Of a stretch of DNA of 64,000 nucleotides, positions 25,066-27,290 are shown piece by piece. How positions within the stretch are numbered: the first letter of the stretch is position 1; each line of letters begins with the position of its first letter. The notes below the pieces were generated by a model that was given only the letters and a program-made list of their open reading frames with translations, made no database searches and had not been told where the DNA came from. The translations under genes and the position numbers were made by a program. The DNA comes from Planctomycetaceae bacterium (GTDB taxonomy: Bacteria > Planctomycetota > Planctomycetia > Planctomycetales > Planctomycetaceae), in NCBI GenBank assembly GCA_041398725.1, contig JAWKUE010000003.1:339263-403262 (forward strand), in the 5' to 3' direction.

Positions 25066-26046
25066 ATGACACCATGGCAAAACCGTATCACGGATCTTAC
25101 ACGACGCATGGCCGACGACATGAAGCTCCGCAATTACTCACAAAAGACGATCGATGCCTACACGTATCACGTCGGCAAGTTCGCCGAATTTCTTGGCAAG
25201 TCGCCGCTGGAGGCTACCGCCGAAGACGTGCGATCGTTTCAACTGCACATGATTGAAAAACGAAAATTGCAATGGAGTTCCTTCAACCAGGCGGTTTGCG
25301 GGCTACGGTTCTTCTTTCGAACGTCTTTCCCCAAACCGTGGCCTGTCACCATGATTCCCTTCGGCAAGCGACCGAAGAGGTTACCGGCAGTGCTCAGCGG
25401 TGAAGAAGTCAACAGACTGCTGTCGTGTGTGAAGTGTCACAAGCATCGGGTGTTTCTGCTCGTGCAGTACGCTGCCGGAATGCGTCTGAACGAAGCCGCG
25501 CATCTGAAGATCAGCGACATCGACAGTCAGCGGATGCAACTGCGAATCGGCAACGGCAAAGGTCAGAAGACACGGATCGTCCCGATGGCACCGCGACTCC
25601 TGCTGGAACTCCGCGAATACTGGAAAGTGTATCGTCCGTCGGAGTATCTGTTTCCCGGGAAGTCACCGAACGTACCCCTTCAGCCGACGACAATTCAGAA
25701 GATGTGCAAGGTCGCGGCAAAGGAAGCCGGTATTCTGAAGAACGTGACGCCGCACACACTCAGACATTCTTACGCGACCGGCCTGTTGGAAGCGGGCGTC
25801 GATCTGCTGGCGATCAGTCGACTGCTGGGACATGCCAGCTTCAGCACAACGATGATCTATCTGCATGTCAGAATTCTGCACCTGGGGTCAGCTCCGAGTC
25901 CCATCGACTGGCTGCCCGTACTCCAGTTGCCCGGCTGGATGCAGCCTCCGAAGAACAACAGCAACAACAACAACAACAACAACAACAACAACAACAACAA
26001 CAACAACAACAACAACAACAACAACAACCCGCCGAAGGCTCCATAA
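25066..26046 (+). CDS. Tyrosine recombinase (phage-integrase family) with a C-terminal poly-Asn tail
   Basis: An N-terminal SAM-like domain (YSQKTIDAYTYHVGKFAEFLGK..EDVRSFQLHM) precedes the catalytic region (GMRLNEAAHLKISDID, HTLRHSYATGLLEAG, LLGHASFSTTMIYLHV). The tail is ..KNNS(N)22PPKAP. Confidence 0.9.
   Translation: MTPWQNRITDLTRRMADDMKLRNYSQKTIDAYTYHVGKFAEFLGKSPLEATAEDVRSFQLHMIEKRKLQWSSFNQAVCGLRFFFRTSFPKPWPVTMIPFGKRPKRLPAVLSGEEVNRLLSCVKCHKHRVFLLVQYAAGMRLNEAAHLKISDIDSQRMQLRIGNGKGQKTRIVPMAPRLLLELREYWKVYRPSEYLFPGKSPNVPLQPTTIQKMCKVAAKEAGILKNVTPHTLRHSYATGLLEAGVDLLAISRLLGHASFSTTMIYLHVRILHLGSAPSPIDWLPVLQLPGWMQPPKNNSNNNNNNNNNNNNNNNNNNNNNNPPKAP
25963..26028 (+). repeat. Perfect (AAC)22 trinucleotide microsatellite
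   Basis: I counted 66 nt of uninterrupted AAC, preceded by AAC AAC AGC. It reads as poly-Asn in the recombinase frame and poly-Gln in the transposase frame. Confidence 0.95.
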
Positions 26047-26057
26047 GAGTCTTTGAA

Positions 26058-27290
26058 TTGCTGCGGCGTTACGCGGCGGACTTTGTGAAACACCATCGTC
26101 CGCAGGCCGTACCGCAGGTGCAGAGCACTTTGGCCAAGCTGGAACTCTGTCGCACGGTCGCCCTGGGCGGTCACCTGTACCGGTGCGATGCGTGCGACAT
26201 TGAGTGCCGAGTCAATAACTCATGCGGCGATCGCCACTGTCCGCAGTGTGCCGGAGCCAAACGTGCCGACTGGCTGGATTCGACGTCGCAACTACTGCTG
26301 CCGGGCATCACCTATTTCCAGGTCGTGTTCACGATCCCTGACAAGCTGTCATCGCTGGCTCTGGGCAATCGCGAAGAGATGTACGATCTGCTGTTTCGCG
26401 CGGCATGGAAGACGCTCAAGGAGGTCATCGCCGACGAACAGCACTTCGAAGCGGCCGCCGCGATGGTGCTGCATACGTGGAATCAGATGCTGGAGGCTCA
26501 TGCCCATTTACACGCGATGGTGCCCGGCGGAGGACCGTCGCTGATCGGTGAACGACGCTGGATCAAAAGCCGTCGTCCGAACGTGAAGCACTGCGACGGA
26601 AACTACCTGTGCGATTCTGAAGAACTCAAATCGACGTTTCGCGAAAACTTCCTGACGGGGCTGCGTCGTCTGCATGCGAGCGGCAAGCTCAAGCTGAACG
26701 GCGAATGGGAATTTCTGCAGAATAAAGTCGCGTTTGACGACTGGCTGAAACCACTGGAATCCATCACGTGGGTCGCGTATATCGAACCGCCACCCTTCGA
26801 AAACTGTCCCCCGGAGCAGATGGCCAAATATCTGGCACGCTATCTCACCGGTGGCCCGATTTCTGATCGCCGCATCGTGTCGCATGAAGATGGTTTTGTG
26901 ACATTTCTTGCGCGAGTCGGCACGAAGATCGGCGGCAGTGATGAGGTCGAACCGATCAAACTTCGCGGTGAAGAATTTGTTCGTCGCTGGTGTTTGCACA
27001 TTCTGCCAAAAGGTTACACAAAGTCACGTCGCTTCGGTGGATACTGGAACTGTCGCCGTGAAAAGTACCTTGCTGAGTGTCGTACGCTACTTGGAGAGAG
27101 TGGTCTCACTGCGTCTGTTGCGTCCGAATCTGCCGCCTCGAGCCTGACACCTCCAGTAACTCCAGAGGACAAAGCGCCTTGCTGTCCGAACTGCCAGGCG
27201 AAGATGTGCTGGATCGGTTTCGTGCCGAAGGAAAGCTGGCGGATCATCATGCACAGCGGACGTCGTCCGCACTGGTATCGAGATGACTGA
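26058..27290 (+). CDS. IS91-family (HUH, Y2) rolling-circle transposase
   Basis: The Zn-binding N-terminal domain is LELCRTVALGGHLYRCDACDIECRVNNSCGDRHCPQC. It also has YFQVVFTIPDKL, the HUH-like HAHLHAMVPGGG and the tyrosine pair YLARYLTGGPIS. There is no ATG or GTG near the conserved N-terminus. TTG 26058 is the nearest candidate start, and the frame is open upstream to 25425. Confidence 0.85.
   Translation: MLRRYAADFVKHHRPQAVPQVQSTLAKLELCRTVALGGHLYRCDACDIECRVNNSCGDRHCPQCAGAKRADWLDSTSQLLLPGITYFQVVFTIPDKLSSLALGNREEMYDLLFRAAWKTLKEVIADEQHFEAAAAMVLHTWNQMLEAHAHLHAMVPGGGPSLIGERRWIKSRRPNVKHCDGNYLCDSEELKSTFRENFLTGLRRLHASGKLKLNGEWEFLQNKVAFDDWLKPLESITWVAYIEPPPFENCPPEQMAKYLARYLTGGPISDRRIVSHEDGFVTFLARVGTKIGGSDEVEPIKLRGEEFVRRWCLHILPKGYTKSRRFGGYWNCRREKYLAECRTLLGESGLTASVASESAASSLTPPVTPEDKAPCCPNCQAKMCWIGFVPKESWRIIMHSGRRPHWYRDD

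Follow-up and report, generated by a model that had tools for sequence, protein, structure and literature searches.

A length-variable AAC tract and a stop-free transposase frame without an ATG in a planctomycete recombinase–IS91 element

Introduction

The pairing of a recombinase with an IS91-family transposase is already known. An integron-like recombinase subgroup has been described that "includes TRs found in IS91" (bioRxiv 10.1101/542381), and examples with the recombinase gene upstream of the transposase gene occur on Leisingera thetidis pBMJM1_2, Paraburkholderia sabiae pPs24235_2 and Clostridium estertheticum pCF008-B. A search of the searchable literature for translational linkage between the two genes of such elements returned nothing; apparent matches in papers on recoding concerned IS911. 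Here, we analyze an element of this kind in a 64,000-nt stretch of DNA from a Planctomycetaceae bacterium (GCA_041398725.1, contig JAWKUE010000003.1, positions 339,263 to 403,262 of the forward strand), which we refer to in full as the window. In the window's element, the recombinase gene carries a perfect (AAC)22 microsatellite close to its 3' end, and the transposase that follows is read in a different frame of the same tract and has no ATG. A stop-free transposase frame without an ATG is a variant of the known pairing that belongs to the window's clade. An earlier note had raised three readings of the tract: a length-variable tail or linker, a device for coupling or frameshifting, and a hypermutable spacer. 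The comparisons below favor the linker and point to a transposase frame that is probably entered far upstream of the tract, within the recombinase gene. The features on which the argument depends are the following, with coordinates counted from the first letter of the window.

25066–26046, + strand: tyrosine recombinase, 326 aa, integron-like/Xer-like, with an N22 tail (Pfam Phage_int_SAM_4 and Phage_integrase)
26043–27290, + strand: conserved IS91-family Y2 HUH transposase (Zn_Tnp_IS91 and Y2_Tnp; Pfam, NCBIfam)
25963–26028, + strand: (AAC)22 microsatellite, N22 in the recombinase frame and Q22 in the transposase frame, found in the window's copy only
25404–26042, + strand: stop-free stretch of the -1 frame across the region coding for the recombinase catalytic domain, the proposed transposase leader

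Results

The AAC tract and its variation among copies

An exact string match placed 22 uninterrupted AAC units at 25963–26028 (66 nt in the assembled sequence), as the earlier note had read them, and Tandem Repeats Finder delimited a wider imperfect array of 25 units at 25954–26028 with 97% matches. The window has a G+C content of 54%, and the run is the sole perfect trinucleotide run of at least five units within its 64 kb. Translation of the recombinase frame across the tract gave ...GWMQPPKNNS-N22-PPKAP followed by TAA at 26044–26046, in agreement with the tail that had been described. In the -1 frame, the same letters read as Q22 and run into the IS91-family transposase. That this poly-Gln frame is open from 25425 into the transposase also held: it is without a stop from 25404 to 27290, and its first canonical start is the GTG at 25425. 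The RNA of the tract was predicted to be fully unpaired.

Near-identical copies (98.5–99.5%) of the 3.28-kb element carry six to nine Asn/Ser codons at the site of the tract. The window's allele is AAC AAC AGC (AAC)22. Three loci that are 99.4–99.5% identical over ~3.2 kb (L032, L034 and L035) have AAC AAC AGC AGC AAC AGC AAC AAC AAT, another (L033) has AAC AAC AGC (AAC)3, and independent insertions that are 98.5% identical (L004, L005 and L008) have AAC AAC AGC AAC AAC AAT. Beyond the tract, all copies of this series share the same sequence, CCGCCGAAGGCTCCATAAGAGTC. Because near-identical copies have only six to nine codons there, a long pure run is found in the window's copy alone, and the element can do without it.

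Variation at this site extends beyond the closest copies. Recombinase tails past the conserved DWLPVxQLPGW motif are hypervariable and Asn-rich, with an Asn run that ranges from N3 to N10 inside single 90%-identity clusters; N22 is the longest that we saw. In other sub-clades it is 15-nt units that vary, with one to four copies of DNDNP and four to six copies of TDNNK, and one lineage (L038) has the same gene architecture without any N-rich repeat. All length variants of the tract are multiples of three and keep the same distal tail, PPKAP and stop. Repeat copy number thus differs among closely related copies, as it does at contingency loci, and the change alters neither reading frame (the unit is 3 nt here and 15 nt elsewhere), as switching would require. 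Expansion would be tolerated because a unit of three keeps both frames, because AAC, CAA and ACA contain no stop codon and because the linker is unconstrained in both frames.

These observations bear out the length-variable linker, in that near-identical copies and close relatives differ in length and do so by whole codons only. They count against the tract as a coupling or frameshift device: copies with three AAC/AAT units after AGC, or with an interrupted array of nine codons, keep the same junction; trinucleotide slippage proceeds only by multiples of three; and there is no slippery heptamer or homopolymer run. The suggestion that the -1 frame is entered within the tract fails for a different reason, since the open frame starts ~540 nt before the tract and entry must lie far upstream of it. 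Judged from the copies compared here, the tract is a slippage-prone, frame-preserving and apparently dispensable linker, not a frameshift device.

A transposase frame kept open inside the recombinase gene

Three of the related loci came from a species-representative collection and nine from a metagenome scan, and most junctions were obtained through exact-protein look-ups. Every clade lineage with enough sequence was included in the count of open frames (n = 14; transposases 46–98% identical to that of the window). In all 14, the transposase lies in the -1 frame relative to the recombinase, which is the relation expected of the downstream open reading frame (ORF) of a frameshift cassette, and this frame is stop-free for 559–898 nt upstream of the recombinase stop. 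Shuffling of synonymous codons predicted 3.4–6.8 stops in the last 558 nt of each lineage compared to 0 observed, with P(0) between 0 and 0.03 per lineage; the lineages have a common ancestry, although between the major ones synonymous sites are nearly saturated. For the window's own stretch, 0 stops were found compared to ~6 expected from such shuffles.

Open frames of this length were not a general property of the surrounding DNA. The 81 half-overlapping 558-nt control windows taken from 21 long host ORFs of the 64-kb window each contained two or more -1-frame stops (median ~7), and no stop-free run in them exceeded 453 nt. The N-terminal part of the same recombinase genes contained two to four stops in the -1 frame, which matches expectation, and the transposase gene's own -1 frame contained 19 stops in 1.7 kb.

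At the level of single sites, we used a gapless codon alignment of nine lineages. T was present at 0 of the 213 overlap sites where a third-position T makes a stop, compared to 22 of 163 such sites (13.5%) in the N-terminal part of the gene and to 25.6% at other overlap sites. Divergence at four-fold sites was 0.48 in the overlap versus 0.52 outside. Because four-fold divergence is near equal while T is avoided at stop-creating sites, selection acts on stops and not on the peptide. The leader peptide itself is rich in S, R, A, E, D and Q, has no Pfam match and is poorly conserved. Of the marks of an overlapping gene, stop depletion across relatives was found, and purifying selection on the amino acids of the second frame was not. 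The transposase frame is kept stop-free by selection for ~190 codons within the recombinase gene.

As an outgroup we used the elements of the Leisingera, Paraburkholderia and Clostridium plasmids together with two distant pairs from viral contigs (L039 and L040). All five recombinase and IS91 pairs have an ordinary ATG, with frame relations of +1, -1, +1, 0 and +1; upstream of the start, their transposase frame stays open for only 0–127 nt, and the frequency of off-frame stops is about as expected. Because these controls lack both features, the long open frame goes with the missing ATG and not with the recombinase fold or a high G+C content. A solo IS91 without a recombinase, from Pirellulales (L031), likewise starts with an ATG of its own, and every frame upstream of it contains stops. 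Its ATG-started extension of 40 aa had been expected to overlap a recombinase and was rejected as such a case, there being no recombinase upstream of this IS91.

The junction between the two genes

The conserved N-terminus of the transposase (IRVFELLRRYAADF) begins at 26043, with the codons ATA AGA GTC TTT GAA TTG CTG, and position 3 of the NCBIfam IS91 profile aligns to the residue encoded at 26052. No ATG or GTG occurs between 26043 and 26084 in the window. The sequence thus confirms that a conserved N-terminus stands here without ATG or GTG and with a TTG at 26058–26060, as had been reported, and the lack of an ATG proved to be clade-wide: there is none at the junction in any of the 14 clade lineages, and other start codons there are not conserved. 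The earlier note had looked to relatives for the absence of the tract together with an ordinary ATG start. The first half was found, as relatives do without the long tract; the second was not, as no clade member has an ordinary ATG transposase start. Two features of the junction need to be located.

26058–26060, + strand: TTG, the start chosen by gene callers (including NCBI, MEZ6032315.1) for a 410-aa transposase; not conserved
26029–26066, + strand: predicted RNA hairpin, inner stem 26033–26041 / 26047–26055, outer stem 26029–26032 / 26063–26066

The codon that overlaps the recombinase stop follows from which stop is used. With TGA it is NTG (TTGA in L017, GTGA in L024 and CTGA in L002, L026 and L038). 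A TAA stop goes with NTA, which is TTA in L021, GTA in L001, L007 and L016, and ATA in the window and the lineages nearest to it; ATG does not occur in either case. Canonical starts are scattered, with a TTG at +14 or +17 in some lineages and none before +41, +65 or +110 elsewhere, and the motif (I/V)RVF(D/E)LLRRY, which matches the start of the family profile, is conserved upstream of them. The TTG at 26058 is absent in L001, L002, L003, L006, L007, L012 and L026, and its equivalent is TCG in L006 and CTG in L001, L003 and L007; the proposal that it serves as the transposase start is not supported by conservation. In L003, a 90-nt insert follows the recombinase stop and is open in the transposase frame, with a GTG at +110 as its first canonical start. 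A similar insert in P0014 does contain an ATG.

In the predicted fold, the recombinase stop TAA and the ATA that overlaps it sit in the 5-nt loop of the junction hairpin. Seven lineages could still form the pairs, with one-sided changes only, and no two-sided covariation was seen among the lineages compared. Analogous junction stems made of other sequences are present in L002 (GAAAC/GUUUC) and L007 (GAAGAC/GUCUUC). No shift site lies before the hairpin.

Where the open frame begins

The 5' limit of the open frame is marked by a stop and, shortly after it, by candidate start codons.

25401–25403, + strand: TGA, last stop of the transposase frame before the open stretch, at the same or an adjacent position in 11 of 13 lineages
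25425–25436, + strand: candidate starts GTG 25425–25427 and GTG 25434–25436, with ATG or GTG at one or both positions in 13 of 13 lineages

Counted from the SP.DWLP motif, 11 of 13 lineages have their last upstream stop at -496, -493 or -484, an ATG or GTG lies at -472 or -463 in all 13, and the first protected stop-creating sites are at -466 and -457. Each candidate start consists of the last base of one recombinase codon and the TG of a Cys codon (NNN + Cys TGY). The open frame begins where the catalytic domain of the recombinase does, at about residues 145–152 compared to residue 141 for Phage_integrase (numbering from 24970). At the stop-creating site of the TGA at 25401–25403 (-496/-493), seven to eight codons before the candidate GTG, T is far commoner than the background of ~22%.

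Signals for frameshifting were scarce in this region. There is no strict X XXY YYZ heptamer in the window or in five of six relatives (the sole strict match is GGGAAAC in L002), relaxed matches are not conserved and the open region contains no homopolymer of at least 6. A canonical -1 frameshift cassette of the IS3/IS1 type was rejected in the absence of a slippery heptamer. Three proteins annotated as plain recombinases (P0241, which is MCX7388172.1 of 696 aa, L014 and P0079) join a recombinase in frame to an internal segment of the transposase. They were considered as read-through fusions and rejected, being deletion derivatives joined at DWL-type microhomology or at other internal points; the joint of P0241 lies at a common DWL coding microhomology (PSPIDWL / RADWLDSTS).

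The proteins, the element and the interrupted host gene

The recombinase start at 25066 was set by gapless alignment with relatives. The catalytic set R-K-HxxR-H-Y is complete in the recombinase (RLNEA, GKGQKTR, HTLRH, LGH and IYLH). Its matches to the NCBIfam XerA, integron-integrase, XerC and XerD models all score below cut-off, so it is no equivalog of any of the four. The transposase matches Pfam Zn_Tnp_IS91 (1e-23) and Y2_Tnp (1e-33) and the NCBIfam equivalog NF033538 (287 bits versus a cut-off of 125). In its translation from 26043, HAHLHAM (the HUH motif) occurs at residue 153 and YLARY (the Y2 motif) at residue 263, and H153, H155, H157, Y263 and Y267 are invariant in an alignment of 36 transposase sequences.

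The element that carries both genes could be delimited by comparison with relatives.

24361–27641, + strand: complete IS91-family element in a host REC + HATPase_c_2 gene; relatives' similarity ends exactly at these limits
24361–24385, + strand: left end CGTTGAACTTAACCGCTTCGTGAGT, inverted-repeat partner of 27568–27592, conserved at the left boundary in nine independent loci (blastn)
27568–27592, + strand: subterminal inverted copy of the left end, ACTCACGAAGCGGAAAAGTTCAACG (blastn, locus comparison)
27595–27632, + strand: right-end hairpin CGATCTATGCG...CGCATAGATCG, followed by terminal CAATTCGTT ending at 27641
24440–24802, + strand: 120-aa ORF without a Pfam match, in this sub-lineage of the element only (identical or 98% identical in L004 and L032–L037)

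The element measures 3,281 bp with both CGTT tetranucleotides and 3,277 bp with one. In blastn comparisons, similarity to L004, L005, L006, L008, L002 and L007 breaks off exactly at 24361 and 27641, and more than eight loci carry the element in unrelated flanks. The ends obtained by comparing loci are [CGTT]GAACTTAACCGCTTCGTGAGT ... ACTCACGAAGCGGAAAAGTTCAACG, the hairpin and GCAATT[CGTT]. CGTT stands at the left boundary and forms the last 4 nt, with no other duplication seen, as expected of IS91 ends; the tetranucleotide reported for IS91 itself is GTTC/CTTG, unlike the CGTT found here. Folded as DNA, the right-end hairpin has z = -3.9, and none of 200 shuffles folds as well; in L017, L024, L025 and L026, both of its arms have changed and are still complementary. 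In L010 and L016, the right end ...GCAATTCGTT abuts the left end GAACTTAACCGCTTCG. Because the two ends share a single CGTT, this arrangement suggests tandem copies or assembled circular intermediates, as rolling-circle transposition would predict. On these features, the element is intact and was recently active, and the L010 and L016 junction lends indirect support to rolling-circle copy-out.

The 120-aa ORF is possibly a passenger or accessory gene; in L006, an unrelated and shorter stretch takes its place. The source metagenome-assembled genome (MAG) also contains a second, diverged copy on a different, 436-kb contig (MEZ6033315.1 and MEZ6033317.1), with the same 120-aa ORF as in the window and a transposase (P0313) that shows 15 differences over 410 residues.

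Excision of 3,277 bp joins a receiver domain (23797–24366) in frame with an HATPase_c_2 domain (27644–28042), reading ...VNFLRCMPLGDETER... across the site. The interrupted host gene is a response-regulator receiver fused to HATPase_c_2 (anti-sigma-factor-kinase-like). Intact homologs of 295–322 aa are present in related MAGs (P0334 and P0335), and NCBI annotates the two halves in the window as separate proteins (MEZ6032312.1 and MEZ6032317.1).

Elsewhere in the window, further perfect tandem repeats were found:

7384–7424: TCATTGC, 5.9 copies
15705–15736: a 16-mer, 2 copies
36337–36395: the 15-mer GACCATTCTCGTCCA, 3.9 copies
44471–44514: the 16-mer AATTTTTCTACCGCGA, 2.8 copies

Discussion

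Our preferred reading, to which we give a probability of roughly 0.55, is that the tract is a slippage-expanded and probably near-neutral linker and that the transposase is translated from the upstream GTG at 25425 or 25434 as a product of ~621 aa. In such a scheme, a short AAC run in the hypervariable, low-complexity linker between the two genes would have expanded recently to (AAC)22 by replication slippage. Ribosomes would enter the -1 frame by internal initiation at the conserved in-frame GTG or ATG (25425 or 25434 in the window), translate an unconserved leader of disordered type across the part of the recombinase gene that encodes the catalytic domain and across the tract, and run on into the transposase. 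The tract would then be translated in two frames, giving the recombinase its poly-Asn tail and the transposase leader a poly-Gln linker.

Several observations weigh against this reading. A peptide that is unconserved in sequence is unusual for a functional segment of a protein. The conservation of the candidate starts is weak evidence, because most synonymous choices at these positions give a start codon anyway. We found no sigma-70-like promoter inside the recombinase gene and no Shine-Dalgarno-like signal upstream of 25425, and we infer both the translation of the open frame and its entry by internal initiation from signatures of selection only. The TTG and GTG that overlap the TGA stop in L017 and L024 would be compatible with initiation or re-initiation at the junction, and so would the recurring hairpin around the recombinase stop.

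We give clearly lower odds to a start at the junction. Here the transposase would begin by initiation or re-initiation at TTG 26058, ATA 26043 or CTG 26061, either after the TAA or through a 30S subunit landing on the AAC/CAA tract; the hairpin would mask the site until translation of the recombinase opens it, and the length of the A/C-rich repeat could tune expression. CAA-repeat leaders such as the omega sequence of tobacco mosaic virus enhance translation, also in E. coli. As RNA, the tract is predicted to be single-stranded, a hairpin whose pairing potential persists in seven lineages comes after it and places the stop in its loop, AAGAG lies 8 nt upstream of TTG 26058, the NTGA/NTAA overlaps resemble the classic ATGA coupling overlap, and both gene callers and the NCBI annotation choose this TTG. 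However, a start at the junction leaves unexplained why the -1 frame is stop-free for 560–900 nt in all 14 lineages and in no outgroup pair. The TTG itself is missing from the seven lineages named above, and where the recombinase stop is TAA, the overlapping codon is ATA, GTA or TTA. The nearest relatives keep the same junction with three AAC/AAT units after AGC, L038 has the architecture without an N-rich repeat, and the hairpin shows no two-sided covariation.

In a second rival reading, the transposase would be made as an OrfAB-like fusion with the recombinase (~740 aa), through non-canonical -1 recoding at ~25404–25440, the boundary between the SAM-like and catalytic domains. The product would consist of the DNA-binding domain, a disordered linker that includes the poly-Q and the transposase. 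OrfAB expression in IS1 and IS3 parallels this design, the -1 relation holds in 14 of 14 lineages, the frame opens where the catalytic domain starts and an unconserved leader suits a mere linker. The narrow entry window, however, shows no obvious shift-prone motif, and the open region has neither a conserved X XXY YYZ heptamer nor a homopolymer of at least 6. No natural in-frame fusion of this type was seen either, P0241, L014 and P0079 being deletion derivatives. We regard recoding as unlikely, and equally so its stronger form, in which the transposase would be made only through the ~190 codons of the -1 frame after recoding and the poly-Q/poly-N repeat would be a tunable linker that modulates transposition. 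A role for the tract as a contingency (phase-variation) switch, or its dismissal as the sign of a decaying copy or as an assembly artifact, seems very improbable to us. As at hypermutable simple-sequence loci, copy number does vary among close relatives and from one near-identical copy to another, but the unit is three and every variant is in frame with the same PPKAP tail and stop, so length changes cannot switch the frame. Decay is at odds with the window's copy, in which both ORFs, the catalytic motifs and both ends are intact. As for an artifact, a 66-nt run is shorter than ordinary reads, and a change from 3 to 22 units would be no typical consensus error.

The clean and statistically strong signature of stop depletion, with a frame that stays open over half of the recombinase gene while its sequence is not conserved, and the lost ATG point to a mechanism of expression that has not been described for the IS91 family, for which a long overprinted leader with internal initiation and a recoding fusion are the candidates. 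For annotation, the consequence is that automatic pipelines cut these transposases short at arbitrary TTG or GTG codons. The copies, nearly identical apart from a tract of 3 to 22 units, also make up a natural allelic series that could be used to test the effects of linker length on either protein.

Comparison with known systems

The window's element resembles the annotated pairs of IS91 and recombinase in gene order (a recombinase gene followed by a Y2 HUH transposase gene on the same strand), in domains, in its hairpin-bearing ends and in insertion by a fixed tetranucleotide without target duplication. Those pairs differ in having an ordinary ATG, a varying frame relation, a short open frame and no repeat linker, whereas in the window's clade the relation is fixed at -1, an ATG is absent and the overlap is stop-free over 560–900 nt, with variable AAC or 15-nt repeats in a sub-clade.

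Programmed frameshifting in IS1 and IS3 (OrfA/OrfAB) offers a second parallel: the catalytic ORF lies in the -1 frame, overlaps an upstream ORF and lacks an efficient start of its own, and a stem-loop, predicted in the window's element, stands close to the end of the upstream ORF. In the window's element, however, there is no slippery heptamer or A-run, the overlap is ~10 times longer, the upstream gene encodes a complete enzyme instead of a small DNA-binding OrfA, and the hairpin encloses the stop instead of trailing a shift site.

With contingency loci and length-variable repeat proteins, the element has in common a perfect coding microsatellite whose copy number differs between near-identical copies. 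The unit of three keeps the frame in both genes, so there is no on/off switching, and the tract is closer to length-variable low-complexity linkers than to a contingency-locus switch. Overprinting in small phages is similar in that ~190–200 codons can be read in two frames of the same strand and the second frame is depleted of stops. The difference is that the peptide of the second frame is unconserved here and only openness is selected, as for a spacer.

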